From NCBI GenBank assembly GCA_051530055.1, contig CM121341.1:9960784-10024783 (forward strand): 64,000 nucleotides of DNA, given 5' to 3'. Of the stretch, positions 8,721 to 63,300 are shown in pieces. Positions within the stretch are counted from its first letter, which is position 1, and every line of letters starts with the position of its first letter. The DNA is from Neoechinorhynchus agilis. Lineage: Eukaryota; Animalia; Acanthocephala. Made by a program: the position numbers and the translations under genes. The notes below the pieces were generated by a model that saw only the letters and a list, made by a program, of their open reading frames with translations, had not been told where the DNA came from and searched no databases.

Positions 8721-8965
8721 GCAGGAGAAGATCCGATTTTGCGGGCGGTGGTGATTGTATCGGACTGATTTAGTTTCTCTAAAGTTGAGGGAGATGATTG
8801 CTGGAATGGACAACTTGGTAAATCAATAATCCGCGACTGAAGAAAGAATATAAAGAAAAAACGTCGGACCGAGACAAAGAGAATGGCGTATTATGAATCT
8901 CTTGGTGAGAGAAAAGGAAGTGGAAAATCGAAAATCAAGATTTTATGGAAAAATTAGCTGGTGAT

Positions 8966-16569: not shown

Positions 16570-17244
16570 GGTCAATGAATTTTGCCGCATTACGCAGTGC
16601 GATTAGGTCCCCTTGAGAAGCAAGAGACAGGCAGTTTGGGACAAAATTTTAATCACGCGAGTTCACGACTCAATGCTATCGGACGTGCGTGACGAGGTGA
16701 CCCGAGCTCAATTGTTGGCGGTCTCTTCGAAGGAATCTTGAACCTGGCTGAGCGCTGTTCCGATTCCTTCTCTCGGAAATTTACTCACAGACGAAACAGT
16801 AAGGATCGGAGTGTATTTCCGACTGCGTCTACTGATTTGTGTCCCCCGAAATTAACTCGGTGATTAGTATAGCCCTGAATACGATGCACGCACCGAATCG
16901 GCTCGAACCGAGTCACCTCTGCAGACTCGATGGTCGAAGACCGGACGAGGTAACTGTGTTCCCGTGGCGAGAAGAGAAATCCCTTCTGACGCCCTTGCCC
17001 GTTCAATCTAAGACATTCCTCAAGGCGCGAAGGAGGTGCTGCAATTGCCGCAGAGGAACGTAAGCGCGGGAAGTACGCGGAGCTCTTGAGGGCGCATCAC
17101 TTCGTCCCTTTCGGCGTTGAGACGCTCGGTGCCTTCGGTGCTGAGGCAGGGAACTTCACGGCGAATCTGTCAGGAAAGATGAGGATCGCAACCGGAGACC
17201 CAAGAGCAGGAACGTTCTTCCTACAAAACATAGGTCTCGCGATC
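16570..17244 (+). mobile_element. CRE-like RLE LINE 3' portion, interrupted at 17245; C-terminus resumes at ~26438
   Basis: LCRLDGRRPDEVTVFPWREEK and HFVPFGVETLGAFGAEAG...FLQNIGLAI end at the LTR. The continuation QQGNAAKVRGT is found at ~26438-26540. Confidence 0.82.
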
Positions 17245-20200
17245 TGTAGTGATGTAGTAATACAATGATTGACGGTTTCGTCACATGATAATTATTTGGC
17301 ACTTGGTGCCGTGTTATAGTGTGAGCGTGTGTTCGTGGTTGAATATAGATATGCGCTCAAATAACACAGATCAGAGTACGACATTTGGCGACGAGCGTGG
17401 GATCTCGACGATGCAGTCCCTCATAGATAAGCAACATGAGTTGTTGAAATTGATGATTAAACAAACGGGACAAACAAAGCTGGGCGAGAATAGAATCGAG
17501 CAAAAGCATAGAGATATACAAGTGTTTCGGTATTTCGATCCTGATAGCGAAACGTGGGATGATTATGAGGCGCAATTATCAAAACATTTGGAATTGTGCG
17601 GGGTTGAAACCCAAGACGTAATGCAGGCTTGCTTGTTGGCGTGAACCAGTCCACGGATTTACGCAAAGGTTCGGAAAAGTTTGGGCACGAGAAACCCCAG
17701 TGATTGCTCTTTCGAAGAGTTAAAAGATATCATATCGAAGTTATACACCCAGCAAATACACGAGGTAGCTGCACGATATCGTTTTAGTAAGATCAAATGA
17801 AACCAGGACAAAGTTATAAGGATTGGATATCAGAGCTATGGGACAAATCGGAAGTAAATGCGGATTCTTGATACAGTAATATTAAACAGCCCACATGAGG
17901 AAATACGAAGATCTGGCTTGCGTTCACCTTACACAGATCAGAGTACGACACTTGGCAACGAGGGTGGGATCTCGATGATGCAGCCCCTCATAGAGAAGCA
18001 ACATGAGTTGTTGAAATTGATGATTAAACAAACGGGACAAACAAAGCTGGGCGAGAATAGAATCGAGCAAAAGCATAGAGATATACAAGTGTTTCGGTAT
18101 TTCGATCCTGATAGCGAAACGTGGGATGATTATGAGGCGCAATTATCAAAGCATTTAGAATTGTGCGGGGTTGAAACCCAAGACGTAATGCAGGCTTGCT
18201 TGTTGGCGGTGAAGGCAAGTATGGAGTTCTATACAGGAGCTGCGGAGTCAATAATCACATGCTCTTTATGGTTCCGAATCGGAAAACCAAAATTAAGACC
18301 AACAAATACGCTAAGAGCCTTTGCAGGAGTGGAAATCAAGAATCTGGGAAGATGTGAAATGAATGTAAAGTTGGGCAGGAAGTTGAAAAAAGTCCAAGTA
18401 GTGGTAGTGCCAGAGTCAGGCAGATGTCTGTTTGGGCTACCATGGGTTTTGGAATTTTTGAAGATTCCAGCGGACCTCGTAGGGGTGCACAATGTCGATT
18501 TGGAAAGAGGGGATAGAGGCGAAGCATTATTTTCGAAATTAAAGAAATCGTTCCCGTCAGTGTTTAACAATGAACCGGAGCCTATGAAAGATTTCCGAGC
18601 AAGATTAGTTGTGAAAGAAGACTCCAAACAACACATTTGTGGTGCGAGAAGGAATCCATTCGCGCTGCAAGATCCGTTAGAACAAGAACTGGATCGTTTA
18701 ATAAAGTTGAAAATTTTGTCACATGTCGATGTGAATCAAGACGAAATAGAATGGGCCACGCCAATTGTAGTAGTTAGGAAGACCGGAAGGAAGATACGAA
18801 TTTGTGGAAATTTCAGTTAATAGTTGAATCACACTGCATGCCCACATTCGAAGAACTAACGCGGAAACTGGCGATTGACAATCTACAGATTCCTGTGGAT
18901 GATCAAACGAGTAGATTACTAACGATTGCTACACCATATGGTTTCTTTAAGTACAATATCCTTGTCAAGACTAAGAAACGGATCAATCAGAGATACACAA
19001 ATAGCGCGGATTAAGCGGTACCTGATTCCAGGATGGCCTAATGGGCCGAGAAATGAAGATATGGATTTTAAAAACCGCAAGGGAGAGCTATAAACGGAGA
19101 ACGCTGTGTTATTATGGCTCGATCGTATGGTGATTTCATCTTCACTTAGAAACGAGGTTTTGCAAAAATTACATGAAGGGCATCCAGGAGAAAAAGGAAT
19201 GGGTTGGATAGAGAAATCCAAGAACATGTGGGCTGCTGCGCAGAAGAGACAACAGTCGAATGCTCGGGAGCAACCATTATTTCCATAAGATATCCCCGCT
19301 GGACCATGGAAAAGAATTCATTTAGACTTCGCCGGTCCTATCAATTGAATGTTTTTCCTTGTAGCAGTGGATGCATTTTCTAAGTAGCCAGAGGTGTAAT
19401 TGAAACCAAGTTCAACAACACAGACGACCATCACGTGCTTGAGAGAAGCATTTGCAAGATTTTGAATCCCGGAACGAATCGTGTCCGATAACGGAGCTCA
19501 ATTCGTCTCGAAGGAATTCCGAACATTTTGTGACGAAAACGGAATTACACATTGTAGGAGTTCCATATATCACCCAAAGACAAATGGTCTAGCAGAGAGA
19601 TTTGTGGGTACCCTGAAAAGACGAGCGAGGCCAGAACATCTTAGCCTGCACAACTTTCTAATGTGTTACAGGAATACACCGCATACCATAACTCAGAAGT
19701 GCCCTGCTGAAATGATGTTTGGGAGACGCATAGCGTCTTTAATGGACAATTTAAAACCGACTGCTTTCAAGACATCTAACAGCAAGCAATCGTTTCAGAA
19801 GCAGGCTCATGATGAAAATTGTGCAACACTAAAAGACTAGATATCGTGCAGCTACCTCGTGTATTTGTTGGGTGTATAACTTCGATATGATAGCTTTCAA
19901 CTCTTCGAAAGAGCAATCACTGGGGTTTCTCGTGCCCAAACTTTTCCGAACCTTTGCGTAAATCCGTGGACTGGTCCACGCCAACAAGCAAGCCTGCATT
20001 ACGTCTTGGGTTTCAATCCTGCACAATTCCAAATGTTTTGATAATTGCACCGGTCCACTGTCTTATGTGGCACAGACGAATGGAGGTTAGAAGAGAATTC
20101 ATGCCGATCACATAAGAAAAAGAGTCAGGAAAAAGACGATCAAGAGGATTCGAAAACAAACAATAAGGGAGAGATAGCTGGAGATTTGAGCAATGGCGAT

Positions 20201-20690
20201 AACCAGGATGGAAAACATCAAGAGTTTAAAAGAGATAGAGAACAGATAAGAGAAAGAAGTTTGGGGTGGGATCAACGGGAAATAAGATACACCACAGGAA
20301 ACAGAACAAAGACAGGGCGGGGATCGTGTTGAAGAAGAAAGAAGGATGAGCGAGGAGAGCTTCAGACCAGCAGATCATCGAGAAAACATAAACGAGGATG
20401 AATTGGAAGCACGACAAGTGAATGATGGGCGTTGACTCAGACGGAGTACACGAACAAGAAGAAAGCCGCTACTGCCATATGATTAGTACCGAAATCTTCG
20501 AGCGGGAGAAATGTAGTGATGTAGTAATATAACGATTGACGGTGTCGCCAATGATAATTATTTGGCGACGGTGTCGTCACATGGTAATTATTTGGCACTT
20601 GGTGCCGTGTGAGTGTGTTCGTGGTTGGATATAGATATGCGCTCACCTAAACTCTGAAATGAACACGAAAACGTATCTCACGAACACGGA
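17245..20690 (+). mobile_element. Rearranged Ty3/Gypsy element (short LTRs, duplicated gag, RT remnant, integrase)
   Basis: 5' LTR 17245-17383 plus PBS TGGCGACGAG; gag FRYFDPDSETWDDYEAQL present twice; EWATPIVVVRK; integrase HEGHPG, VSDNGAQF and YHPKTNGLAERFV; inverted gag piece 19838-20050; purine tract followed by the 3' LTR from 20512. Confidence 0.85.
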
Positions 20691-20699
20691 GTTTGAGAT

Positions 20700-20957
20700 A
20701 GACACTGTCTTAACCATTCACAAAGCCTGTGAAGACTTATAGGAGGCTCGCATTGAGGGTAAGGCAGTGGCAGACTTTGTAGCTTATAGAACCATGTTAG
20801 TCGTTTTCCCGGTAGCTTTAGTAGATCGCCTACGACTATTATTGGACGAGGGCCTGCCTGGGAGAATCAGTCACCTTAAGTGCGTCATTGGCATGGCTCG
20901 GTCCTACAGGGATTCAGGTATGAAAGGGGTGTTAATGGAGGGACTAGAAATAGGAGG
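20700..20957 (+). pseudogene. Left part of a segmented negative-strand RNA virus L-protein EVE
   Basis: The reading frame ...FVAYRTMLVVFPVALVDRLRLLLDEGLPGRISHLKCVIGMARSYRDSGMKGVLMEGLEIGG ends at the GGAGG TSD. It becomes contiguous with 24890 onward when the Gypsy insertion is removed. Confidence 0.6.
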
Positions 20958-23900
20958 TGTGATTGTGAATGTGACGACGACAGTGCGCATTTCACATATA
21001 CTGATCGTGTGTATGGACATGTACGTGCACCCGTCCATTTGCTAGATTGTTAGTTCGCGGTTTTTTGTTGAATAAACGCCTAAATGCAGAACATTTTGTT
21101 CAACAAAAAAGGGTCACCAAAAGACAATCACGAAAGCATATGGATCGAAATGTGCTCTACTCTCGATACAACCGTTCATAGAGTGAATGATGCTTTGCTG
21201 AAACCAGATAAGCTAACCATGATACCAAGTGACTGCCACTCAGCCGAAATCTTTGAGCACTGGCTCGCAACATTCGAAAATTACATACAGGATTTCGAGC
21301 TAGACGATAAAGGGAAATTGGTCCGCCTTATCAATTGTGTAGGTCCGAAGGTCTATGCTCAAATCAAAACATGTAGAACTTATGAAGATGCTAAAGGAGT
21401 TTTAAAAAAGTCATATTGCAAAGCAACTAATGTGATTGCGGCGCGGTACCGCTTGATGACCCGTCGACAAACGAATACCGAGTCGGTGACGGATTATGTA
21501 ACCGAATTAAGGCTGTTGGCGGATCAATGTCAATTCAAAGACGTTAAAGCTGACGTAGCTAAAGAAGAAGCAATAAGAGAATAACTTATCGCGGGAGTGT
21601 ACTCAGACAAGCTAAGACTGAAGCTGCTTGAAAAATCGGACATTGTCCTAGATGAAGCGATTCAACAAGCTACTGTTATTGAGCAGGCTGAGAACGATTG
21701 CTCTAACTACAACCAATCACAATGTAGCTACATAAAAAAGATCAACCATCGCTTGACGAATACCTAACACAGAGTCTGATTGTCGCGTTGCCATTACTCC
21801 TACTCCTGATTGTCGAGCTGCCAACACTCCTATCCCTCGAACGATAGTAAGCGAAAGCTCCGTTGCCATAAATCTACCAGCAAAAATGCTATTTTTGCGG
21901 AGAAAGGCGTCATCATAGATCAATATGTCCGGCGAAGGATGCGAAGTGCAACATCTGCAAGAAAATAGGCCACTATGCGAAAGTTTGCCAGTCTGCGTCT
22001 AGAGTGGCCGCGATCTCATTACTGGCAATCCAAAATATACGCAAAAGTCAAGGTTCTGATTTCATCTTCTTGAACGATAAATCGAAACTATCAGTTTTGT
22101 TCGACACGGGCAGTTCTCAAAACTTCATTGACGATAAAATAGCGAAGAGACTAGGACTCAAGGTTATACCAAGCAAAGTGCCGGTGCGAATGGCCTCTGG
22201 TGATGCCCGAAGAAATACTACCGTAATGACTGAAGCAAGTCTAAAATACCGAGGAGTAGTAGTTCACGGCAATGTCAAGCTATATGTCCTAGGGGATTTA
22301 TGCACGGATGTAATTCTGGGGAGAAGCTTCATGGATCGTTTCGAAGAAGTAAAGTTTATTTTCAGTGGAAACGGATCTCTTCGGGGCATGGCGATGAATG
22401 GAGAGTTGACTCCGTGTCGTTTCGCCAATCTGAGTGAGAATTGTCGACCGATTGCCGTGAAATCAAGGAATTATTCCCACGCTGACAAGAGCTACATTAA
22501 AGAAGAAGTTCGGCGATTGCTCTCTGAGGGAATAATAGTTCCTAGTCAGTCGCCTTGGCCGGCTCAAATGCTGGTTGTCCGGAATAAAGCCGGAAAGCCT
22601 CGAATGGTAATCGATTACGCGTCCACCATCAACAGATACACTGAGCTTGATGCTTACCCCTTCCCAAAATTGAGGATCTGGCTAGAGAAGTAGCCCAATA
22701 CATGTATTACACCGCTATTGATCTTCGACATGCCTACCACCAAATACCCATAAACAGATTAGATGGGGTTTATACCGCTTTTGAAGCAGATGGGGGCCTT
22801 TACGAATTCACCCGGATCCCATTTGGAGTTATAAACGGGGTAGCCGTGTTTCAAGGAGTGATGGACTCGATCATAGCAAATAATTCGCTGAACATCACGT
22901 ACGCCTATCTGGACAACATTACTATTTGCGGATCAACAATCGAAGAACATGATATTAATTTAGAGAAGTTCGAAACAATCGCGAGGGATCTAGGGTTGAA
23001 ATTTAATGAGGGCAAATGCGTTTTCAGAACGAACCAAATAGCAATGCTTGGTTACCTCATTTTACATCGAAGTATAAAACTTGACCCTGCGAGAATAGAG
23101 AGTTTGATGGCGCTGAAGCCTCCAATGGACACTGCCGCTTTAAAACATTGCATGGGAATATTCTCATATGATTCAAATTGGATACCAGATTTTTTGACAA
23201 AAATTCATCCGATAATCAGGAGTGACAAATTCGCCTTGGCGCAGGAAGCAAAGGAGGTGTTCGAGTCTATCAAGCAGGAAATCGGAAAATCGGCTCTAAG
23301 CTCTCTTAACCCTTCAGGTCTATTAGTGTTGGAGACAGATGCATCGGAGGTAGCCATAGCTGCAACACTCAGTCAGGAGGGCAAACCTGTGGCGTTCTTC
23401 TCCCGAACCTTTTCACCCTCGGAATGGAAGCACCTTGCAATTGGAAAGGAAGCACAGGCGATCGTGGAGAGCGTACGAAAATGGTGACACTGCCTGCTTG
23501 GCAGAACGTTTGTGATTGTAACCGATCAACAGTCCGTATCATTTATGTTCAGCAAACACCACAACAGCAAAATCACGAACGACAAGATTCAGCGATGGAG
23601 GATCGAACTGTCGTGCTTCAAGTTTGAAATCAAATATCGGCGTGGTCGGCTGAATGTGAGTGCAGATGCCTTCTCCCGATTGGAATGTAACGCGACCAAT
23701 TCCATTGACCTGAAGACAATACACGAAGACTTGGCTCATCCCGGCATGCAACGACTGGCTCACTTTGTGAAAACCAAAAACTTGCCGTACTCCATAAATG
23801 ACGTACAACGGGTTTGTGAACGATGCCGATATGTGCCGAGTTTAAACCATGATTCTACAGACCTCCGGATTTGCACGTGATCAAAGCTACTAGGCCTTTT

Positions 23901-24889
23901 GAAAGGATAGTAGTCGATTTTAAAGGTCCTTTACCAAGCTCCTCGATCAACAAGTACATATTTCTCGTGGTGGACAAATATTCACGCTTCCCTCTTGTTT
24001 TCGCGTGTAAGGACACTTCTAGTCGGACGGTTAGATCGTGCTTGGTTGGGCTTCCCGAATACCTCATCAGTGATAATGGAAGCTATTTTCGATCGGAGAA
24101 CAGATTTTTTCCTGTCTAACTTGGGAGTTCCGACTAGTCACTCCAGTTCGTATAATCCGCGGAGCAACGGAAAATGCGAGCGATATGTCGGGATACTGTA
24201 GTAAAACATTCGAATGCTTCTCAAGTCGAAATTGCTGCCTATATCCGCATGGGAAACTGTGTTGCCCATTGCTCCCCATGCGATCAGGTTACTCCTCTGC
24301 ACATCGACGAACTCCACTCCTCACGAACGTTTGTTCGCCTTCCCTCGGCAATCAATATGCTCTAATTCACTGCCACCTTGGCTCTGCAATCCTAGTCCAG
24401 TGTGGCATAGAAAGGCGACCACCAATAGATGAAAAAAGTGGATTTATTAAGTTCTAATCCAGGATACTCAACCATACAGTTTGATGATGAGCGCAGAAGC
24501 GTGGTATCGACCAGGGAGCTTGCCCAATACCCTAGCGATGAATACAATCCTCTTCAAGAGTACCGATCATTGGAGGAGCACGACGATAGCGAGATACATA
24601 CAAACGATTCAGAAGAAGCCGCCACATCTGAGCAAAACGAAATCGAAAATTTCGACGATGCACAGCAACAAATGTAGATCCTCCCAACCGTTCGAAAGTT
24701 CACTCGAATTCGAAACCCTCCGCCTTACCTTAAAAATTATGAATGGGGGAGAATGTGATGGTGAATGTGACGACGACAGTGCGCATTTCACATATACTGA
24801 TCGTGTGTATGGACATGTACGTGCACCCGTCCATTTGCTAGATTGTTAGTTCGCGGTTTTTTGTTGAATAAACGCCTAAATACAGAACA
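20958..24889 (+). mobile_element. Structurally complete Ty3/Gypsy LTR retrotransposon, 136-bp LTRs, 5-bp TSD GGAGG, coding region disrupted
   Basis: LTRs 20958-21093 and 24754-24889 differ at 2 positions by eye. TSD at 20953-20957 and 24890-24894; PPT GGGGGAGAA before the 3' LTR. Gag, protease (LFDTGS), RT (IDLRHAYHQI, YAYLDN), RNase H (LETDASEVAI) and integrase (VVDFKGP, ISDNG) are in Gypsy order. Confidence 0.95.
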
Positions 24890-25612
24890 GGAGGGTACAG
24901 GAAATGCACACCAGTAGAAGACCTGTTCACTGAGGGGAACCCATGTTCATTGACCTGACATCAGACGCAACCCTTGTGTCAACAAAGATGAAAGTCTTGG
25001 CCAGTAGGGTAGTGGAAAGGGCTAACTCATCAGTCAAGGTTATACCAAGGACAAAAGTTCCCAGAGGGAGGGTAAGAGCTTTCACGGAGGCAGCAGCTTA
25101 CAAGGTCATCAGCCCAGAACTGAGGAACTCATTTTCCATTGTATTCAGAGATGCCAGGAAGGACTTACCCAAAATGGCTGAGCACACTATAGATAGAATA
25201 ATGGAGCAGTCGACTGGAGAAGCGGGTAGCATCGGCCCAGTGAAACTGGTGGACGCCACCAAGGTGGAACACATGACCAAATACAATAATTGTCAATCTA
25301 TGAAGTATTTTGAGGACCTATCTCCTGGAGTATCTGGACAGAGGGTATAGCCTCAAATTCAAGTCTATGACCAGTCTTGGGGGCAACTTTAAGGGATGAG
25401 CTATGCACTGAGTACAAAGGTCCAGTGTCAAAATTCATAGTGCAATTGGACCAGATACAGGCTACCTTGGGGAAGGCTGGTACTCTTACGACGACGGTAT
25501 TTTCTTCGCCACTGTGGTCCTGGCCTTTACCAGAAGATACGTAGAAGATCCTTCAAAGTCAGAAGCTTATGTGAGAACGATATCTGACGATATTTTTGAA
25601 ATCTACTTCAAC
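24890..25612 (+). pseudogene. Right part of a segmented negative-strand RNA virus (bunya-like) L-protein EVE containing RdRp core motifs
   Basis: Premotif-A-like VKVIPRTKVPRGRVRAF; motif A DATK (25252-25263; DATKWN if one base is removed); motif B WGQL*GMSYALST (25378-25416; TAA is one change from CAA, giving QG); motif C candidates WYSYDDGIFF (25478-25507; one change from SSDD) or TISDDIF (25583-25591). Confidence 0.75.
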
Positions 25613-25614
25613 CG

Positions 25615-26545
25615 CTGAGGCCAAGAACTTCACGGCGAATCTGTCAAGAAAGATGAGGATCGCAACCGGAGACCCAAGAGACGATTGACGGTTTCGTCAC
25701 ATGATAATTATTTGGCACTTGGTGCCGTGTTATAGTGTGAGCGTGTGTTCGTGGTTGAATATAGATATGCGCTCAAATAACACAGATCAGAGTACGACAT
25801 TTGGCGACGAGCGTGGGATCTCGACGATGCAGTAGCTCATAGAGAAGCAACATGAGTTGTTGAAATTGATGATTAAACAAACGGGACAAACAAAGCTGGG
25901 CGAGAATAGAATCGAGCAAAAGCATAGAGATATACAAGTGTTTCGGTATTTCGATCCTGATAGCGAAACGTGGGATGATTATGAGGCGCAATTATCAAAA
26001 CATTTGGAATTGTGCGGGGTTGAAACCCAAGACGTAATGCAGGCTTGCTTGTTGGCGTGAACCAGTCCACGGATTTACGCAAAGGTTCGGAAAAGTTTGG
26101 GCACGAGAAACCCCAATGATTGCTCTTTCGAAGAGTTAAAAGATATCATATCGAAGTTATATACCCAGCAAATACACGAGGTAGCTGCACGATATCGTTT
26201 TAGTAAGATCAAATGAAACCAGGACAAAGTTATGAGGATTGGATATCAGAGCTATGGGACGTATCAAAAGGATCCAATTTTTTTAAATCGGAAGTAAATG
26301 CGGATTCGTGATACAGTAATATTAAACAGCCCACATGAGGAAATACGAAGATCTGGCTTGCGTTCACCTTACACAGATCAGAGTACGACATTTGGCGACG
26401 AGGGTGGGATCTCGACGATGCAGTCCCTCATAGAGAAGCAACAGGGCAACGCTGCAAAAGTCCGTGGGACGATTCAGAGTGGCGAAGAGATGGATCTGGG
26501 AAGTTCGCAACGATGTTATGCGGAAATGAGTTATTGTTAAAAAAC
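25615..26545 (+). mobile_element. Duplicated CRE/LTR/gag junction (copy of ~17150-17960) followed by the CRE C-terminus
   Basis: gaacttcacggcgaatctgtc...ggagacccaagag, the LTR, PBS, gag and the LTR-end-within-gag chimera all repeat 17150-17960. Confidence 0.85.
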
Positions 26546-26814
26546 AAGTATTCAAAAAAACTTGGTAAATCAATAATCGATGACTATAGAAAGAATATAA
26601 AGAAAACACATGGAAAACGTAGGACTGAGGCAAAGAGGATGGTGTATTATCAGTCTCCTGTTGATAGAAAAGGGAATGGAAAATCGAAACGCCGAAGTTA
26701 GGACGCTGGTCAAGAACCATAGATTTGTTATCCTCTGTAACTAAGAAAGATATCGATCAAGATTTTATGGAAAAATTAGCGAGTGATATGGCATTTAAAC
26801 TAACTGGAAAGCCA

Positions 26815-30615: not shown

Positions 30616-31944
30616 ATGGATTACGAAAACGATCCTTATCGTCACCCAGGTTATGAGAAGCAAAGACAGCGGCGACTAGACGCCTATCGTGGGATGCGGA
30701 ATGCAAGATATATGCAATCAGATGAATACAAGAATCTTTCAGGCCCACCCCCATATTACGGACCATCTCGTGGAAGAGGAAGGAGCATGTTTCGGAGGCG
30801 AATGCTCGAAAAGACTCAGACGAACATCCAAGCGGCCAAGATAAGCAAAGATGCCACCCAGTCCATTACACAACGTCTCGAAAGCACACAGCGAGACTTA
30901 CATGTCATCGAAAGATATGGCTCGTCCTACGTGACACTAAGATATCTTCCCGGAGTGCCAAATCTCCTGCCCTATCTATCTCCGCACATTCAAGACCAAA
31001 GCTCAGTCAATCTAGCAGCAGCGAAGATAGTTGAATCACTGGCAATATCGGCGTATGTTAATGAAGTAACAGAAAATGAAAATGGACTTGTGTCCGAATC
31101 GTTTAATACAATGTGGAAGACGTCCGCAATCGCGACTCCCAATGTATTTTCGATGATTTCTGCTCTACGACCGATCAAAACTGAAGATTTTATCATTGTG
31201 AAAAGGCAAAAAGAAGTTCCAGACGAGCTACTGACCAAGACGTCAGGTACAGTGCTCAGACTAGAACGATATTTGACTTACGTCAACGACCCGATTATGA
31301 TGGGCATGATTAGCGCGTGCCACCAAGTATCAACCGAGGCTCAACTCAAGACGGCAATAATTCGAAGAGCCCGTGCCCATGTCGCAATGTTGCCTAACAC
31401 AGTGGTTGATGTCGATTTCGGGGAAGTGATCGACTTCTTATCGATACCACCAGTCCGGACGAAAGATAAGCAATCAGTGATTCAGGTGATGACAATGTTC
31501 GGTTGTTCCAGACATGATGGTTGGGGAATAACCAGGAATGTGGAACTGGAGGACGTTTCGATTGAAAGTTTGTTCCGGCAATTCAGAACTAGTTTTACTA
31601 GAACTGATTTAAACAATTATTTGGATCTGACTGTTCCGATAAGCGAGAGTAATGTTGCAGTTGTTGATCATATCACACCTGTTAACTACTCTGACAGTAC
31701 AAGCAATCCTCTTCATGGTATCAGAGAGTGGAAAATATTCGATCCAATACGGTATGAGCTGCCATACAGAATGAAGCGAAATGTCTGTGGTATGTTCGTA
31801 AGCAGCTTTCTGAGATTGTACGATGTCTCAGATGTTGGAGAATTGAATAAGATGCATCTTCAGGCGAAGGCATCATGTATTCAAATAGACGGTCCGAATC
31901 ATGCCGTCGTGCGTCAGCTCGGCGTCGCTGTTCAATTCATGTAG
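30616..31944 (+). CDS. Intact intronless 442-aa orphan protein; candidate RNA-virus structural (capsid or nucleocapsid) gene
   Basis: Uninterrupted ATG-to-TAG ORF among decayed TEs, with no TE or host motifs recognised. The N-terminus is Arg/Tyr/Pro-rich (RGRGRSMFRRR). Viral origin is inferred, not shown. Confidence 0.7.
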   Translation: MDYENDPYRHPGYEKQRQRRLDAYRGMRNARYMQSDEYKNLSGPPPYYGPSRGRGRSMFRRRMLEKTQTNIQAAKISKDATQSITQRLESTQRDLHVIERYGSSYVTLRYLPGVPNLLPYLSPHIQDQSSVNLAAAKIVESLAISAYVNEVTENENGLVSESFNTMWKTSAIATPNVFSMISALRPIKTEDFIIVKRQKEVPDELLTKTSGTVLRLERYLTYVNDPIMMGMISACHQVSTEAQLKTAIIRRARAHVAMLPNTVVDVDFGEVIDFLSIPPVRTKDKQSVIQVMTMFGCSRHDGWGITRNVELEDVSIESLFRQFRTSFTRTDLNNYLDLTVPISESNVAVVDHITPVNYSDSTSNPLHGIREWKIFDPIRYELPYRMKRNVCGMFVSSFLRLYDVSDVGELNKMHLQAKASCIQIDGPNHAVVRQLGVAVQFM

Positions 31945-39545: not shown

Positions 39546-39653
39546 GGTAGGAGCTTTATTTGATCCGTTCTCGCTTTACGTTTGATCAATTCTTGAGGCA
39601 CTGGCTGATCCGGACGATCCTCCGTACTATTTGAATCTCCTCCTAAGCAAACG

Positions 39654-40466
39654 GTGGTGCTCGCAGGGATGCAGGATCTCAATCGGTCAACAGAGGCTAT
39701 GGAGGACTTGTCCCTATTCTCCAGAGTGCAATTGGACAAGCTTGAGGATTGTTCAGGAATAGAAAAATCTTGTATCACAATGTTTCGTGACGCAATGCAC
39801 GCGCGGGGGAGTACAGCTTTCAAGGATTCCGCAAAAACCTCGGCGGAGATAGCCATTCAAGAGCACTTCCACAGCTCCAATTGGACCAAGCTGCTGAGAA
39901 ACGTCCCCTATGATCAGAGGGCCGCAGCAACTCGCCTCATGGCCAACTGCCTGCGCAACGTTAGATGGAATGACGTCAACTCCTACCTCACTAGGCTCAA
40001 TGAACAAGCAGTCCGGGCTCTAGAGGGTGCGGCAAACGCCTTTGATCGCCGTCCTGCCCTAGATTTTGCGGATTGGCGCAAATGGGGAAATAAGACCAGG
40101 GAGAAATGTGCGAAATGGACCGTGACCAGGGCCCCCAACGCGCAGGAGTACACGGACGCCTTGTCAGGTGGGCGTTCCATCTTGACCTGGCTGTTGAATC
40201 ATAATCCAGGGGCAATTGGCGAATATCCGAAGAACGCGCAGTGGGCGGCGGTGAAAGCAGAAAGCATCATGGTCGAGGCGGCGATCAAGGCGGTTCCTCA
40301 GGAAGAGCAGGAAGCCTTGGAAGTTCTATCGAAAGAGGCATTGGTTGAGAGTCTCACCATGAAAGCCGGCGTCCTCCCCGCCGCGGAAAAGAAGTTGCTG
40401 ACTGGGCTGAAGAACATTTCCGTGAATGCTTTCAAATTGCGGTTGGTGAATATGGACAAGAGGTAA
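39654..40466 (+). CDS. Intronless 270-aa orphan ORF, helical-looking; possible viral nucleoprotein fragment
   Basis: Open frame with Ala/Leu/Arg-rich composition and no TE motifs. It begins ~110 bp after the truncated Gypsy pol, and the true start is uncertain. Confidence 0.55.
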   Translation: MVLAGMQDLNRSTEAMEDLSLFSRVQLDKLEDCSGIEKSCITMFRDAMHARGSTAFKDSAKTSAEIAIQEHFHSSNWTKLLRNVPYDQRAAATRLMANCLRNVRWNDVNSYLTRLNEQAVRALEGAANAFDRRPALDFADWRKWGNKTREKCAKWTVTRAPNAQEYTDALSGGRSILTWLLNHNPGAIGEYPKNAQWAAVKAESIMVEAAIKAVPQEEQEALEVLSKEALVESLTMKAGVLPAAEKKLLTGLKNISVNAFKLRLVNMDKR

Positions 40467-42815: not shown

Positions 42816-43544
42816 TGGAAATCGGATGCAATTAATTAGGGTCCATTGTCAGAAACAATCTTCTCGGGAACACCTCGATATTTAAGCCGCTTCGTTTGCT
42901 TACCTCAGTTCATAAATTGCCGCGCAATCGGAAATTAACAAAAAAAAACGCTTTTTCTCCTAATCATATGGACCGATTGGGGTTGTAGCCAGAAATTTTA
43001 AAACCCATTTCATTTAAAAAAGTAAAAAACCTAATTGCAAACTAACGTTGCAACGGAGAATGTCAAACCGCCAGCCAATGTTTTGTAAAAGTTCACTTAC
43101 CCTCGGAGTGGAGATTGTTGCCTCGGATACAAAACCTCATCTCCTGGAAAAGGATGTCCAACTCGAATAACCTCGTGCCTAGTCGACATTTTCAAACGTA
43201 AATCAGAAAGCATATTTCGCCTATCTCACTAAAAAGTGGCCACCGGTCATGCTCAGACAATTATTGTAAAACGGTTACCCGATGGCTTGTTTGGAGCAAT
43301 GAGGTTCTACCTAACAACCCAAATGTGGCTCTCACCCTTTCACGACTTCATTAATTTCAAACTACCCAGCGATATCTTCACAGTCTTCATAAAAAGTTCA
43401 GTTCCCTGCCAAAGGACTTCAACTGTAAAATCAAGTTCCGTCTAATGATGGAAGCCTCTCGACACGTTTGAGATCATTTATGTTCGCAGCAATCCTGTGA
43501 GCTAAACTGCTTTAAGATTCGCTTCTCGCCTGCGATCTCAATGG

Positions 43545-46500
43545 ATGGCGGCTGAGTTGGTAGACGCTACTACCACCAGCGAGCCGAACCATCCTAAGAA
43601 TTCGGTTACGTCGTTGACGTACGGTGCCTTCGATGTGAAACTTAACGATCTTAATGGACCGCGACGTTGTCGCTATGCTTTCTTTACAAATGGTGCTGAG
43701 GCGGTTTGCGATGGCGTTCTTTCTTTACTCTCGAGATATCCACAGACGGTCTTGGATGGTGTCCCTGAGCATTTAAAGAATGTTTTCAAACAAGGTGGTT
43801 TTAGAGTAAAACAACTCCATTTGTTATCGAACCCCCTTACTTCACTGATGTGCTTACTCTATTAAAAGAGGTTCTTTCGCGAGTTGGTCAATTATGTTCA
43901 TCTGACTTGGTAACGGTGAATAGGTTCTTTCAAGATGGGGTTGTCCCGGCTAAAGTTTCGGTATCATTGATGAGCGAAGCTCTTTCTAAACTTTCGGACG
44001 GGAAGTGTCCCAATTGCGGGTTTTTCCTTGTTGAGCAGAGGCATGAGTGCGTCAGAGCCGTCTCTTGGGCTCACTTCCTATTTAATCGGATTTTCAGCAC
44101 AGGCTTATTGACCGATGAAATGCACTTGCGGCATTTGCTTCATTCGACTTCCAATGGCCACGTTTATAAGCCCTTTACTCGCTCTATTGGTTGGTAGCCG
44201 CTCAGCTCCACCAATTGATTTTGCCTAGTAGCTCCTGCATCAGCAGTCATTTGATCACATTACTCGGAGTGCCGATGTGTGATTCTGTTGAACTAACTAG
44301 TTTTGAATCGCAAATGGAATTAGTGACTCGTGTCATTTTGGACCGAGCTAAACATTCAATTAAAGATCTTCTTTCAGATATGGTTGAGGAAATCGTCGGG
44401 TCAACATTGATGACGCCAATCGTAGAAGATAAGAGAAGTGCTCCAATGAATCCCGTCGTTAGTCCCTCACCTAAAACGGTTATGAACAAGGTACCTGTTG
44501 ATAAAGCTGCGGTTGATCAGACAGCGCTGAGCGAGTCTGCCTCAGATATAGTATTCCCAAGCGACGCTGAATTGGTTTCTAGTCCGAGTGCGAAGGATAG
44601 AAGAAGTAAACTCCGCAGCGATTTGAAGGAGCTTCTATCTATGAAAAGAGATTACACCCAGAAGCTGCTCTCTGATTATGAAAGTAACATAACGGTTGCA
44701 CGCGAAACGTGCAGAAAACATCCAACAGCGATGGCCCAGGCCCTAGAAGATCTGCTGTAGTGTGTTTCGCAAACATCAGCCTCACTCGCAGTGATTGAGC
44801 AGGTCTTGGAAGAGATTCAGGCAATGGTCCACCTTGAAGATATCCCTCTTTTGGCATCATATCAAGATGACCGCGATATCGACTCTTTGGCAACAGGTCC
44901 CACAGACTTGGGAACTACATTCACGGCATATATTGCTAGAGGGTTGGCCTCTGAGAATACGGGTCGAGTATCAGTCACGGCGTGTCGGGCAAACCGTGGT
45001 AGTTCGAGATTGGCTTTCACGCCTACTGACAGAACTGGCTCATTTTCGCGCGATCTAGATGCTATGATAAGAAATGTAGCTTACCCTGACGGACCGGTTA
45101 GCGATGTGCTAATCAATGATAGAGCTCAGAACCTTGAGAAGAAAGTGCGAAACGGTGTTCGTGTTCGCTCTTACTTTCTTCTCAATAGGATCGGCAATTC
45201 AAAGAAAAGATTATTGGGTTTATGCTTCGCTCATAGGCATAATCCACCCATGCTCAGGGCACTGGCGCGGGATCTTCATTCCCGTAAGCAGGGGCTATGC
45301 GCGGCCTTTTGCAAGGAGTTGGAAGCGCTAGGAGAATCAATGGAGCTTGTGGAGAAGGCCGAGTGGTGTATCTCCCGGCGAACTGCTTTATTGTCATCGG
45401 TTCGGAACAGACACTTCCGACATTTTTGTTCACCAAGGTGGTTATCTGTGGGTGCAGTCAGAGCTTTGGCTGGGGACGGTGTGAGCGTTTTCTTCACGTC
45501 TTACATCTCCACCCTCCTAGCTGGGCCTGACGGCTACTCACAACGCCTTTCCGATGAATGGAACAAGCTTATGGACTCTATTAATGGCAACCCCATATTC
45601 GTTCCCTATCTCCCGCTGGGATATCAAATGTCTTGTCAACGGATCATTTCCACAAATGTGCCATTCGAATCGACTCTAGTCCTGGCTGGGAATCGTTCCT
45701 TCTTCCGATCGCTGCCGACGCAGCAAACTTTCTACATAGCTAATCAAAGACTGTCTTGTTGACCGAGATGCTTCTGGCCGCGGCGCGTGAATTCATTTCG
45801 AAAAAGAAGATAGCTCAGGACTATGCGTTTTTGGAGGAGGCTGAAACTCGGTTCTATCGTGGTCAATCAGTAAGATTAGCTGGAACTACTCTACCGATCT
45901 GGTTCTCATTTGGTTTCGTGTATGCACATTCCGGGATTATAGGCCCGAATACCACCGACCGCGGGTTGTGCGACGATAAATGATACTGTCGAGGTCGAAA
46001 CTCTAGGTGCAATGGAGGACAAGGCTTTACGCACTTTAGCCACAGGCCCCTGCTGGGATCGTTCCTTCCACTGGATCACCTCAGATGATATCGGCCCATT
46101 AGCGAAAATTGATTTTTCCAGAGTGCTGAACATAGTGCATCATTTGAGTTCAATGATACATAGACGAGATGGCTCGCCGGCTACGTTCGCTAGGCTGAGA
46201 ACATTGCTGTCAAAGGATACAGACCCGAACGTTACGTGTCCTCCCCCAAACGGTATAACCAATCTAGAGGGCTCCATGAGCCGCTTCTGGGCAACCCAAC
46301 CTTTCGAAGTCCTCTGGATACGCATGCCGGTTATAGAATTCCTTCGTTCGATAGCCGCTAACTCTATACGCTGCACTGAAGGTGCAGACGAATACGACGT
46401 ACCATTTGCGGGTAATGTTGCTGCCATGATGGAACAGTGGTTCTCGGACCCGGTTGAACAGCTTTTCCGTATGATCAGGAGAAACGCCGAGACGCTGGAG

Positions 46501-46800
46501 GAGTTTGAGGAGGTAAAGACAAGGGTTTGTTTTAAAAAGTGTAAATGAAATGTGGGCATCCCATTTAAGGTTTTCTTGTAAAATCACGCCCAGAATTCGG
46601 AGAGAAGAGGAGCGTTGGATTGGGAGAGGCGCGGGAATAAGGTTGCGTTTGGAAGGAGGGGAAGGTACGGCGACTATCCTTGCCTGTCAGCGTGATCGAC
46701 AGTTGCAAGCGGCTGCAACTATACGTACAGCAGTTCAGACGGCACTTACTAGCTATTGGGAGACTGAAACAAAATTCTCAGTTCACGTTGAAACTATCTG
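43545..46800 (+). pseudogene. ~1000-codon intronless polyprotein-like coding tract broken by a few frameshifts and stops; unknown, possibly viral
   Basis: Abutting or overlapping ORFs 43545-43865, 43850-44197, 44191-44760, 44791-45762, 45756-45983 and 46012-46480. A CPNC...HEC motif is present. GC content is higher than in the host genes, and no RT, IN or transposase motifs were found. Confidence 0.6.
46482..46653 (-). mobile_element. Internal fragment of the CR1/L2 family seen at 13227-16014
   Basis: Matches 13740-13910 and is flanked by AGGAG at 46477-46481 and 46654-46658. Confidence 0.8.
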
Positions 46801-46843
46801 ATTTTATTTTTTAAGTTTTACTGGCAAGCCGGTATGTTATGAT

Positions 46844-46959
46844 ATTCAATTTTAGTCAATCCCTTTCTTGTCCGGCTCAATTCAATTTTAGTCAATCCCT
46901 TTCTTGTCCGGCTTAATTCAATTTTAGTCAATCCCTTTGACTAAAATTGTTGACTAAAA
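46844..46959. repeat. 36-bp tandem repeat (about 2.5 copies) ending in inverted TTTTAGTCAA/TTGACTAAAA boxes
   Basis: attcaattttagtcaatccctttcttgtccggct(c/t)a repeated, then ttgactaaaattgttgactaaaat. Confidence 0.85.
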
Positions 46960-47663
46960 TATCTGATTTTAGTTTGGTCAAATTGAAAGTCCAGGCATTA
47001 GCTTCTTCGCCATACACCTCAGTAGCTGAAATCCGTTACGCTGCTGACTGTAACACTCGTGAGGCCTATGAGATTCTAGGTGTTTCTTGTCGCAATCTTA
47101 GGGTGGCTTACAAACTCAGCCTGGCCTTGACCTTCATCTACTCAAAAATGACTAAGTCGCTGGCTGACTTTTGGCTCGAGGAGTCTGCAACTATGCCTGC
47201 ACACCTCACGAATTCAATACATCCGGATGTAGTAACGATGCTAAATGCCGAGTCTGCCAAGCAGAGGTGGAAGCGAAACTCGCACGAGGCGGCGTGCGGG
47301 ACGGGGCTCCAGGAATGCTTCACGGCAATGAGAAACGTGCGCGAGGCTCTGCAACTGTTGCGAAGGTTGTTTTCCGCGGCGAAACCATGCTGCCAAGCTC
47401 AGATCAGACGCTGGCTCACACCTGATTTGTTTGTTTTTGGCGACTCAAGAGAGGAAGGACACCCAAACTGGAACCTTGCGCGCGCGGCGGCGGAGCCAAA
47501 CGCGCTGTTATCGAAGAGGCAACTTCAATCAGCGGACTGGGTCAGGTTGCTCAAAGAGGAAGAACTCATTGCAGCAATACGGTCAAACTTTTCTGATCCA
47601 CCGCGTTACTCTGCGCTCGGCCATTCACAGCTTCGTGGCCCCCATCCCAGGCAGCGACGTTAG
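46947..47663 (+). CDS. Intronless ~238-codon orphan frame, 3' end truncated by the duplicated repeat; possible viral protein fragment
   Basis: Long open frame without a canonical ATG start and with no TE motifs. It runs into the 47660 repeat. Confidence 0.5.
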   Translation: MLTKISDFSLVKLKVQALASSPYTSVAEIRYAADCNTREAYEILGVSCRNLRVAYKLSLALTFIYSKMTKSLADFWLEESATMPAHLTNSIHPDVVTMLNAESAKQRWKRNSHEAACGTGLQECFTAMRNVREALQLLRRLFSAAKPCCQAQIRRWLTPDLFVFGDSREEGHPNWNLARAAAEPNALLSKRQLQSADWVRLLKEEELIAAIRSNFSDPPRYSALGHSQLRGPHPRQRR

Positions 47664-51500: not shown

Positions 51501-52791
51501 TTATAAGGCATCTTTACGATTCCATCTCAAAATCTTTGACAATTCATTTAGTAACTCGTTGATTCCGTCTTCTACCCCATAGCCCGTGATTCCACTGCAT
51601 TCCTTATATATTATGCGATGAGTATTGATTAAATCGCCAATAATGTCCAACTTTTCTCGTATTTCGTCTTCATTCATTGCACCCGGTATGTGGCACTTTT
51701 GTTGCAAACGCGAGGATTCAATTTATAATGATTGACACTGGATAGAAAAGTAATGGGTCTATAAAATTATTAATATATCAGTTCGTAAGGACGATCGCCA
51801 AAGAAGACGATTGCATGTTTTTTAGTTTAGATTGGAAATTCAAAATTACTTAGGTGGACTTTGCAGTTACAAACTAAAAAGTCAAAGATTCTGTTACTCG
51901 CAAAACGCATTTGCTAAACAGTTAAGGAAAATGCGACTAAAACTAACCGCCGAGTTCTTGATATACATTAGCGAATATTGGTTACCTTTTGTTTTATATT
52001 AAATTAAGGCAAAAAAACCAAAAATGCCGGCTTTAAAAAAATATTGGTTGACGATCAACATTCGAAACATAATCCCAATTTTAATGGGTTTATTTGTTTA
52101 TTCTTAAACGCAACAATTCTACTTATGTTTGTTTATGCCGGTGAAAAATTAAAACGAATTATTTCGGCAAGGCACAATCTTGTACGCATTCTTTATCAAG
52201 GTTGCTTAAGTGTCTCATTCGCATTGCGACCTTGATAAAGAATGTGTACAAAATTGCGCCTTGCCGAAAACAACCGGACGTAATAAATTCTTTTAATTTT
52301 TCACCGGCATAAATACCAGAATAATTCAATCTTAAAGCAATTCAACATATAAATCGCATAATATTTTATCTATTTAAATTTCCCACAGACAAAAGTACCA
52401 TCCGTATGTCGTGCTTATTGCCGAAAATTAGAAAGAGTGCATTGTTCAATCTTGGTTCAGCTAATAAATTTCCGAGTACTCGGCGGCATTCCAGAATTCT
52501 GTCCGGAGAAGCACAGTCAACGACAAAAATTACAACGTGTGTCCGTTCAAAGTACGTGTCCCAATATTGGCGAATGGAAGCTTGGCCACCAACATCCCAA
52601 ATATTCATTATAATATCGCCAAGCGTCTTAGTTCGGATGTCTAGGTTGAAGGATGGAGCGATGGAGTCAACATCTTCATTGAACATTTTATGAAGAATAG
52701 TTGTTTTGCCGGCGTTGTCGAGGCCTAGCATTACTATTCGAATAACTTTGGATTTGTGGAGACGCTTTCTCAGCACAGTCAGTAAAACCAT
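51501..52791 (-). CDS. Arf-like small GTPase, Arl2/Arl3-like; two coding segments (52791 to ~52400 and ~51700 to 51501)
   Basis: GLDNAGKTT, NIWDVGGQ and GNKHD in the first segment. IPGAMNEDEIREKL...CSGITGYGVEDGINELL in the second matches the Arl2 C-terminus. The splice junction is uncertain. Confidence 0.85.
52132..52313. repeat. Fold-back (MITE-like) element in the Arl intron
   Basis: Arms tttatgccggtgaaaaattaaaa...ctttatcaaggttgc and gcgaccttgataaag...ttttaatttttcaccggcataaa around a ~20-nt loop. Confidence 0.8.
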
Positions 52792-53958
52792 CTTTAAAAA
52801 GAATTTTAGTATATCAACGATACAATCTTTATTTTGGCAATAAACAACAGGTTATATGAAGTGCCTGAATTTTCTAGACCAATAAATCTTTACCAAACTG
52901 TATTGATTTTAAAAACGAGAATCGATAAATCGTAGCGATGATCATAAAGTGACTTTTACTAGTTTGAATCTCTAATTTAAAATTTTACACTACAAAACAA
53001 ACAATTTGTTATTGTGAAGTGAGCAATCAAAAGATGTAAAAGGAAAGAAAATCGTTTGGAATCGATTTTTGAAAAATTTCAAAATGGTTTGAAATAGAAA
53101 AATGAAGGAACATACAACTCCAATATTATTCATGGATAAACGCAATTTCAAAAGGTTACTTGAGATCGAGGGTTTAAAATCGTAATATACAAAAAACTAA
53201 TGTGAAATAAACAAGGAACATCTTTTCAATGTTTAGATTGGAATTTAAGTTCTCTGCTAAGATGGACAATGTTGACTATTTCGATTTTGGTTTGAATTTT
53301 GTAAAATCTTAAATCCATTTCTATTTTGAGGAAGTTGATCAATAATATTATTGTTCATTTCGAAGAATTATCATAAAAAATTCATTGGGATGATAAAGTT
53401 CGAATTGCGGTGACATATTTTTATTGATATGAAATATTTCGAAAGAGGAAGTCTTATTGTTTAATTGTTTCATTCGCAATCCAGGATTACCATCACCATA
53501 ATTTAAACAAATTATATGAGCATTTAAGCGCTAAAGATGTACGCTGTTGCGATTCCACGTACTATGTTCAAAAATTTGAGGAGCATTTAAGAGAATTCAA
53601 ATATTTCCACAGGGCAAAAAGGGAAAAAATAAAAAACTACTATGGGAGAATACCACGAATGTAAATATCGACCAAACTATTTTAACAGTGCGCAAAGCCT
53701 AAACCAGTAGATAATGGGTTTTTAATTGTAAATCAGGAATAGATGACTTAAGAGATCGGATTTCAATGTGGAATACAAAATAATGTGGGCGCATTTTGAA
53801 GACCTTTTAGATGATGTGAAATAAAGACTTGCGTGGGTTATGTTTAATGAATGTAACACGATATAAAAGTTAGTAAGACGGAGATACCCACAATTCAATG
53901 AGTGAGGATTATAAATAGCATGATTTTTGCGGCTTCCGTAAGAGTGAAATCGCATTGC

Positions 53959-61600: not shown

Positions 61601-63300
61601 ATAATATTTTGAATGAGTAAACAAAATTATTCTCGAAATAAGACTGTGGTGATCATAATTCGGGATATTTCAGTAAACAAAATTATTCTCGAAATAAGAT
61701 TGTGGTGATCATAATTCGGGATATTTCAGTAAACAAATTTTATGATAAACACAAGTTCATTTCGAGAATATTTTAATTCTATTCAATTGTTCCTTCGAAT
61801 GGATGTGTATTCTCAATGGCGAATTGTTACACTGCTCGAGTTTTATTATTGAACTCTTCATTGCGAATCTTCAAGGCCTCAGCTCGAGTGTGTAACAATT
61901 CGCCATTGAGAATAATATTTTGAATGAGTAAACAAAATTATTCTCGAAATAAGATTGTGGTGATCATAATTCGGGATATTTCAGTAAACAAATTTTATGA
62001 TAAACAAAAGTTCATTTCGATAATATTTTAATTCTATTCAATTGTTCCTTCGAATGGATGTGTATTCTCAATGGCGATTTGTAACACATTCGAGTTTTAT
62101 TATTGAAATCTTCATTGCGAATCTTCAAGGCCTCAACTCGAGTGTGTAACAATTCGCCATTGAGAATAATATTTTGAATGAGTAAACAAAATTATTCTCG
62201 AAATAAGATTGTGGTGATCATAATTCGGGATATTTCAGTAAACAAATTTTATGATAAACAAAAGTTCATTTCGAGAATATTTTAGTTCTATTCAATTGTT
62301 CCTTCGAATGGATGTGTATTCTCAATGGCGAATTGTAACACATTCGAGTTTTATTATTGAACTCTTCATTGCGAATCTTCAAGGCCTCAGCTCGAGTGTG
62401 TAACAATTCACCATCGAGAATAATATTTTGAATGAGCAAACAAAATTATTCTCGAAATAAGATTGCGGTGATCATAATTCGGGATATTTCAGTAAACGAA
62501 TTTTATGATAAACAAAAGTTCATTTCGAGAATATTTTAATTCTATTCAATTGTTCCTTCGAATGGATGTGTATTCTCAATGGCGATTTGTAACACATTCG
62601 AGTTTTATTATTCAATTCTTCATTGCGGATTTTCAAGGCCTCAACTCGAGTTCGCAACAATTCGCCATTGAGAATAATATTTTGAATGAGTAAACAAAAT
62701 TATTCTCGAAATAAGATTGTGGTGATCATAATTCGGGATATTTCAGTAAACAAATTTTATGATAAACACAAATTCATTTCGAGAATATTTTAATTCTATT
62801 CAATTGTTCCTTCGAATGAATGTGTATTCTCAATGGCGAATTGTTACACTGCTCGAGTTTTATTATTGAAATCTTCATTGCGAATCTTCAATGCCTCAGC
62901 TCGAGTGTGTAACAATTCGCCATTGAGAATAATATTTTGAATGAGTAAACAAAATTATTCTCGAAATAAGATTGTGGTGATCATAATTCTTGATATTTCA
63001 GTAAACAAATTTTATGATAAACACAAATTCATTTCGACAATATTTTTAATGAGTCTAAAATATGAAATATTCCAGAAATTTATTTGTGGAGATCATAATG
63101 CCAGATATTTGAGTGGAATATTTATATCTTCTATTATGATCATCAAAAGTTCATTTCGAGAATATTTTGAACGAGTCCAAAAGCCTAAGATCAAAAATAT
63201 TTCCGAAATGAATTTGATGTGATTATAATGCCGGATATTTTCGGTAAACAAATTTTTGTCCAGGATTATGATAAAAAAGTTTATTTCGATAATATTTTGA
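58621..63300. repeat. Satellite array of about 16 units of ~254 bp, each with an internal ~30-bp inverted repeat, bracketed by ~175-bp direct repeats
   Basis: Unit starts at 59279, 59532, 59787, 60041 and 60296 (spacing 253-255). Each unit contains tattctcaatggcgaattgttacac...gtgtaacaattcgccattgagaata. Flanks 58621-58795 and 63133-63300 match each other. Confidence 0.95.

Follow-up and report, generated by a model that had tools for sequence, protein, structure and literature searches.

Structure of the locus

Positions 20646 to 25613 of a 64,000-nucleotide window of contig CM121341.1 from the acanthocephalan Neoechinorhynchus agilis (assembly GCA_051530055.1; all positions below count from the first base of this window) hold two short, decayed coding stretches on either side of a Ty3/Gypsy retrotransposon, referred to as Gypsy A. 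The flanks very probably derive from the polymerase of some RNA virus and so form an endogenous viral element (EVE), and from their motifs we consider it reasonably probable that together they represent a single degraded DNA version of a PB1 segment from an Articulavirales-type RNA virus. As a structure, the split by a Gypsy insertion is certain; the viral origin of what it splits is likely. The locus is composed of the following features:

20646-20957, + strand: left EVE piece; 13-nt leader, ATG at 20659, 99 codons, stop at 20740; ends in the first copy of the target-site duplication (TSD)
20953-20957, + strand: left copy of the GGAGG TSD
20958-21093, + strand: 5' long terminal repeat (LTR) of Gypsy A; 136 nt, TG..CA
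21084-21581, + strand: Gypsy A gag (Pfam)
21872-22690, + strand: Gypsy A zinc knuckle/protease (Pfam)
22651-23484, + strand: Gypsy A reverse transcriptase/RNase H (Pfam)
23853-24116, + strand: Gypsy A integrase (Pfam)
24754-24889, + strand: 3' LTR of Gypsy A; 136 nt, purine tract just upstream
24890-24894, + strand: right copy of the GGAGG TSD
24895-25613, + strand: right EVE piece; about 240 codons, 4 frame changes, 3 stops

Gypsy A (20958-24889) has the hallmarks of a Ty3/Gypsy element: paired TG..CA LTRs, a TSD within the 4 to 6 nt range, and Pfam domains in the order gag, protease, reverse transcriptase, RNase H, integrase, in a coding region now interrupted by stops and frame changes. The preliminary description of this DNA had proposed a Gypsy insertion with GGAGG on both sides, which the LTR pair, the TSD and the internal domains bear out. 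Because of the TSD, the two flanks must have been adjacent prior to the insertion, and the insertion was the last step in the history of the locus. It is also young, as judged from a noisy clock of 2 differences between the 136-nt LTRs. Codon arithmetic agrees with the further proposal that the two halves join in phase once Gypsy A is removed, with 299 nt running from the ATG at 20659 to 20957 and the next codon starting at 24896. An obvious tRNA primer site was not apparent in Gypsy A. Shortly after its 5' LTR, the 12 nt at 21099-21110 are the exact complement of 21061-21072 inside the same LTR, for which Tf1-type self-priming is a parallel (PMC4600332); the stretch is A/T-rich, so the match could be due to chance.

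The two EVE pieces sum to about 1030 nt and about 340 codons, with 4 stops and 4 frame changes. In the right piece, the frame changes lie near 24935-24955, 25263, 25380, and 25420 and the stops at 25274, 25301, and 25390; no functional polymerase can be made from the locus. The left piece had been described as starting at 20700 and in fact starts at 20646, exactly where the 3' LTR of a second element, Gypsy B, diverges from its other two copies. At the other end, the EVE is cut off after the palm by the right neighbor at 25614. We infer the viral identity of the left piece from its contiguity with the right piece through TSD and phase.

Polymerase-like motifs in the right piece

Several blocks of the right piece resemble motifs of RNA-dependent RNA polymerases (RdRps):

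25051-25098, + strand: motif F-like block; anchor Arg at 25081; about -2 bits, weak alone
25234-25272, + strand: motif A-like block; Asp at 25252, Lys at +3; 0.5 to 3.4 bits, broken by a frame change
25375-25416, + strand: motif B-like block, GQL*GMSYALST; 16 to 18 bits, best fit to the Met-rich loop of Articulavirales
25472-25504, + strand: motif C-like block, YSYDDG; DD at 25490; 5 to 6 bits
25541-25612, + strand: possible motif D- and E-like blocks at 25547 and 25598; chosen by eye, not selected by the chain search

The blocks were scored with ungapped motif matrices built for each virus family; the ordered chain with the highest score in any combination of frames was compared with dinucleotide shuffles and with 500 other tiles of the window. 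The matrices retained 12 of 14 sequences for Articulavirales, 19 of 54 for phenuiviruses, 39 of 41 for peribunyaviruses, 26 of 42 for arenaviruses, 54 of 83 for botourmiaviruses, and 66 of 67 for mononegaviruses; loci L038 and L445 were dropped from the orthomyxovirus set, being of bunyavirus size. The bunyavirus sets cover Phenuiviridae, Peribunyaviridae/Tospoviridae, and Arenaviridae, with nairo-, phasma-, hanta-, and other families outside them.

When motifs A, B, and C were chained under a spacing common to six families, Articulavirales alone stood out, its score being reached by 4 of 3000 shuffles and 0 of 500 tiles. The corresponding shuffle counts of 3000 were 2592 for phenuiviruses, 1849 for peribunyaviruses, 383 for arenaviruses, 359 for botourmiaviruses, and 1138 for mononegaviruses. 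With motif F included, one frame change allowed per block, and spacing ranges again shared by all families, the Articulavirales chain scored 24.6 bits (3 of 2000 shuffles, 1 of 500 tiles), and a set restricted to orthomyxoviruses picked the anchors 25081, 25252, 25393, and 25490 (1 of 2000 shuffles, 2 of 500 tiles); these are the anchors that the full Articulavirales set also picks under family-specific spacing (observed range ±15%), where 1 of 1000 shuffles and none of the 500 tiles scored as high. The three bunyavirus sets remained at chance level with family-specific spacing, and with one frame change per block their scores were reached by 1111 (phenuiviruses), 195 (peribunya-/tospoviruses), and 502 (arenaviruses) of 2000 shuffles. 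By a modest margin, motifs F, A, B, and C are present in order and at distances compatible with Articulavirales, and we regard this chain as moderate evidence for that order from the sequence.

Much of what had been described for the right half survives in altered form. The motif order holds (F at 25081, A at 25252, B at 25381-25416, C at 25490); the single frame does not, given the 4 frame changes and the stops. DATK and WN are both present but sit in different frames, the DD of motif C is there within YSYDDG instead of the SDD that had been read, and the B-to-C spacing of about 36 aa measures 32 codons from the conserved G.

Several other motif assignments were tried and set aside. An ISDD at about 25585 lies 63 codons from B and was picked as motif C only by the botourmiavirus set, at chance; DLTSDAT at about 24955-24975 sits upstream of F and was rejected as motif A; and EIGG is on the wrong side of F for the VGG/IGG motif of influenza viruses. 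An LxxG at codons 92-95 has the same number as the LxxG of Tilapia lake virus (TiLV), but equivalences between TiLV and influenza virus put the influenza motif G elsewhere, which leaves a weak lead. A botourmia-like origin, suggested by GQL.G, was dropped, as that motif set scored at chance.

Codon spacing and known polymerases

The distances between the anchors are compact. In the EVE, F to A spans 57 codons, A to B 47, B to C 32, and A to C 79, and start to F about 163, the last figure counting from the ATG at 20659 as the presumed viral start. In TiLV PB1, the same distances are 58, 54, 22, 76, and, for start to F, 155 (PMC10709604). Influenza PB1 has 66 for F to A, 104 to 106 for A to B, 33 to 35 for B to C, and 140 for A to C, with F at about 239 (A at 305 minus 66), and Dhori-like PB1 has 60, 97, and 28 for the first three. 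Bunyavirus L proteins have median A-to-C distances of 127 to 143 and A-to-B distances of 83 to 110. The A-to-B distance of the EVE, missed by the preliminary description, falls far under all bunya- and orthomyxoviruses measured (83 to 121). The letters therefore look orthomyxovirus-like while most distances look TiLV-like: start to F, F to A, A to B, and A to C fit the compact spacing of Amnoonviridae, and B to C does not.

Residue by residue, R155, D213, K216, G267, and D289 of TiLV PB1 would correspond to about 163, 220, 223, 267, and 299 of the EVE (PMC10709604). Both have a Lys three residues after the motif A Asp, and in both, motif B lines up with the Met-rich loop. The two differ in their B-to-C distance and show no detected pairwise similarity. 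TiLV is a fish virus, whereas the EVE is a degraded remnant in DNA that ends after the palm and lies in a compact genome of invertebrate type. The leader CCTAAAC resembles the coding-sense start CCAAAC of TiLV, a weak likeness noticed post hoc. Orthomyxoviridae PB1 (influenza A to D, thogoto/Dhori-like) gives the best letter fit to motifs B and C and shares the B-to-C distance and a low CpG content (see below) but differs in A to B (97 to 106, against 47) and in start to F (about 239, against 163).

If the EVE is a PB1, its source was probably compact like that of TiLV; taken outright, a compact, amnoon-like source is a fair possibility that stays short of even odds. The same EVE could instead come from a PB1 of ordinary length, of orthomyxo-, quaranja-, or cnidenomovirus type, that was shortened by deletions after integration, a doubtful variant that we count within the Articulavirales assignment. 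By its motif letters, the EVE is closer to orthomyxoviruses (z of 4.0) than to the two amnoonviruses (z of 1.6), B to C is influenza-like, and frame changes lie at both ends of the short A-to-B stretch. Against this, start to F and A to B would each have to lose 60 to 75 codons and end no more than 8 codons from the TiLV lengths, and the F-to-A distance is also of the TiLV type.

CpG depletion

The right piece contains 13 CpG dinucleotides where 37.8 are expected (observed/expected [o/e] 0.34; Poisson P of 3e-6), and its tile has the lowest CpG o/e of the 176 tiles of the window (median 1.13, next lowest 0.61). Three host exons have values of 1.16 to 1.24. Reference medians are 0.23 to 0.37 for segmented negative-strand viruses, with orthomyxovirus PB1 at 0.37 and bunyaviruses at 0.23 to 0.30, compared with 0.63 for mononegaviruses and 0.85 for botourmiaviruses. 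The depletion of the right piece is a sign of foreign origin independent of the motifs. The left piece has a CpG o/e of 0.73, which is not significant.

Points against a PB1 origin and other explanations

A number of results weigh against assignment to an Articulavirales PB1. Motif B supplies 16 to 18 of the 20 to 25 bits, yet its Met-rich loop is degraded and contains a stop, and F and A add little. Including D and E lowers the chain result (8 of 1000 shuffles, 8 of 500 tiles), and motif C as read is YDD and not SDD in this decayed copy, with the DD at the expected distance. The chain P is about 0.002 uncorrected, and the true value is nearer 0.01 because the region had been preselected for motifs and the comparison covered six to seven families. 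The Articulavirales set itself holds 12 sequences, 9 of them influenza-like. The left piece carries no independent viral signal, and the B-to-C distance of 32 resembles influenza virus (35) and not TiLV (22). A set of the two amnoonvirus sequences was not significant (124 of 2000 shuffles), and TiLV PB1, represented by a reference locus 98 to 99% identical to the named protein (L435), gave no match to the EVE among the best 20 tblastn or best 10 phmmer rows. As the profile and pairwise tests gave no match, we assign the EVE to neither Amnoonviridae nor Orthomyxoviridae.

Standard searches were blank. Pfam returned no family for four read-through frames, PDB no useful match, and the ESM Atlas no usable match for the pieces; searches with the pieces gave no match to an Articulavirales PB1 profile or structure (PF00602, PDB PB1). 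Neither a set of 5.8 billion proteins (0 of 512 candidates) nor one of 1.84 billion yielded a match, and none of 5 pattern matches in IMG/VR contigs or 117 in JGI metagenome contigs was confirmed. Hidden Markov models (HMMs) built from fetched orthomyxo-, phenui-, peribunya-/tospo-, arena-, and mononegavirus loci reached at best 1.9 bits (E of 3) over 25249-25419; the same run found rhabdovirus-like fragments elsewhere in the window, and the method therefore works on less divergent EVEs. The hhalign probability was 1.2, and a frame-tolerant profile alignment, run without a null, gave 15 to 20 bits for all seven profiles and did not separate the families. A single-sequence fold model of 24934-25347 was unusable (predicted local distance difference test score of 34.9). 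A wider hunt for PB1 references gained only TiLV and Flavolineata virus, with 0 of 315 pattern matches in metagenomes confirmed. The preliminary description had staked its reading on an RdRp profile hit and on motifs aligning in register: standard searches returned no such hit, and the ordered motifs passed modestly.

The blank searches leave room for an RNA virus polymerase from another group (qin-, yue-, or ophio-like, or a lineage without a name) with no more than a resemblance to PB1 in its motifs, which we judge unlikely and rank next after shortening of an ordinary PB1. No relative was found in the databases searched, and the CpG depletion and the viral neighbors of the EVE speak for a viral origin but do not single out a group. 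The mononegavirus and botourmiavirus sets, however, scored no better than shuffles (reached by 1138 and 359 of 3000), while four anchors come out in order with the Articulavirales set. That the flanks are no polymerase at all, being a foreign or orphan coding fragment such as another viral gene or transposon cargo with chance look-alikes of motifs, would accord with the empty searches and with a score that is driven by one motif and reached by 1 to 2 of 500 unrelated tiles; four ordered anchors at plausible distances, the extreme CpG depletion, and long open frames on one strand make it improbable. Least probable is the bunyavirus-like L protein of the preliminary description, which its CpG medians and a motif A of 8 bits under the phenuivirus set would allow, since all three bunyavirus sets scored at shuffle level, motif B fell to -7 under the phenuivirus set, A to C is 79 codons instead of 127 to 143, and a leader and ATG stand merely 163 codons before F. 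The divergent Articulavirales alternative that had also been raised is the one favored by the motif chains and the compact spacing.

Presence in sequencing runs and transcription

Of the nine sequencing runs listed, five contain 0.62 to 0.88 of the sequence words of the stretch, and the EVE is covered in all four that were mapped (two DNA and two RNA, from three studies), one DNA run possibly being the source of the window assembly itself. Contigs span both junctions with the Gypsy A LTRs by at least 31 bases per side (X3, 20687-20994; X1, 24852-25368), and an 820-nt contig from X2 covers the right piece with zero differences. Among the 8 joints listed in the four runs, none was an empty-site joint skipping Gypsy A. 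Depth over the right piece was 107 in X2 and 17 to 23 in X8, with single-copy host DNA at 124 to 127 in X2 under another likeness cutoff; the left piece was deeper (X2, 177; X8, 31) and may have a second copy. The flanks are single-locus genomic DNA, the right piece being near single-copy depth, and raw whole-genome shotgun reads and junction contigs place the EVE in host DNA joined to host and transposon flanks.

X1 and X3 are RNA, as splicing shows; the run records mark none of the runs containing the stretch as RNA. In each of the two, reads join across 7 GT..AG introns of the hydroxylase gene described below, and one intron bin has no coverage. EVE depth in these runs was 2.6 to 8, compared with 12 and 26 for the hydroxylase mRNA, and contigs of depth 3 to 7 also occur outside known exons. 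Low-level read-through transcription of the locus is likely; DNA carry-over is a possible alternative.

Origin and implications

The viral piece opens with a short leader and ATG right at the truncated end of the Gypsy B LTR, which is the basis for a template-switch model. Viral RNA would have been copied by the reverse transcriptase of the Gypsy B family and the cDNA joined to the Gypsy B 3' LTR through template switching. The product would have entered the germ line within a mosaic of transposon and virus fragments and decayed by stops and frame changes, followed by the loss of everything past the palm, before Gypsy A inserted and split the decayed copy. The locus would at most provide a template for small RNAs of the PIWI-interacting RNA (piRNA) type.

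Viral fragments beside or inside Gypsy elements are a well-known phenomenon. In Aedes, LTR-flanked nonretroviral EVEs are explained by reverse transcription of viral RNA and recombination with Gypsy transcripts, and EVEs of piRNA clusters include, as here, a viral fragment joined to a Ty3/gypsy LTR and gag among other EVEs and transposons; those EVEs lie in piRNA clusters (PMC6797480), and the present one is known from DNA and RNA reads. Orthomyxo-like EVEs of insects, such as those of the firefly Photinus pyralis, are likewise Articulavirales sequences fixed in an animal genome but match known live viruses of their host, unlike the EVE described here, which has no detectable relative (PMC6191289).

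Divergent invertebrate-associated Articulavirales have been described (PMC10636315, PMC12277240, PMC7354609), among them "Metamyxovirus" and "Cnidenomoviridae," clades tied to aquatic invertebrates (PMC10636315). The source virus may belong to one of these groups. Literature matches for Amnoonviridae with EVE and amnoonvirus with invertebrate contained no report of an amnoon-like EVE in the titles and abstract openings of those listed. We tentatively suggest that the locus could preserve, for the first time in a genome, a compact PB1 of amnoonvirus-like type, from an undescribed family-level Articulavirales lineage in an invertebrate germ line. Unlike metatranscriptomes, an EVE gives proof of which host a virus lineage infected, a point made for the invertebrate-associated amnoon-like clade (PMC10636315). 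Were a compact PB1 correct, it would link an Articulavirales polymerase of minimal size with the germ line of an invertebrate, extend minimal PB1s beyond fish and reptile viruses, reveal a lineage that current libraries fail to detect, and bear on whether Articulavirales are rooted in invertebrates or on Amnoonviridae.

Surrounding mosaic

The EVE is bordered by repeats on both sides:

20512-20645, + strand: 3' LTR of Gypsy B without its last ~25 nt; element B spans about 17245-20645, with rve and protease matches
25614-26443, + strand: right neighbor, a 67-nt stretch of a high-copy repeat and a duplicate of LTR-B and gag start; matches 17140-18003 except for a short deletion

The high-copy repeat at this duplicated junction (17140-18003 and 25614-26443) had no Pfam match and resembles the 3' end of a CRE-type long interspersed nuclear element. 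At 19840-20051, Gypsy B carries 212 nt of its gag a second time, in inverted orientation.

Other viral remnants lie nearby. A rhabdovirus-like L fragment from the motif B region is present at 26622-26760 (tblastn E of 2e-5), with a diverged duplicate at about 8800-8940 (8780-8940), and an L N-terminal GHP block of the same type is found at 453 (420-510). A picorna-like RdRp fragment at about 1210-1480 matches Pfam RdRP_1 (E of 0.007) on its motif B stretch. These rhabdovirus- and picorna-like neighbors were counted in support of the EVE reading.

Elsewhere in the window, 30616-31941 is an intact orphan open reading frame of 442 aa with an RG-rich N terminus and without match in Pfam or PDB; its nearest ESM Atlas clusters are viral capsid/nucleocapsid-like (0.82 to 0.85), a lead only, and it is possibly another EVE. 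Long orphan frames of 196 to 333 aa at 39609-40463 and 43500-47660, without useful Pfam matches, are possibly viral or transposon cargo. A tandem array of about 254-nt units at 58800-63300 had no Rfam or tRNA match, and no rRNA or tRNA genes were found in the window. An aromatic amino acid hydroxylase gene at 54047-55862, with best PDB matches to tryptophan hydroxylase (E of 9e-43), has 7 introns, 5 of them of 43 to 52 nt; this gene and an Arf-like one at 52369-52851 identify the genome as that of an animal and as compact.

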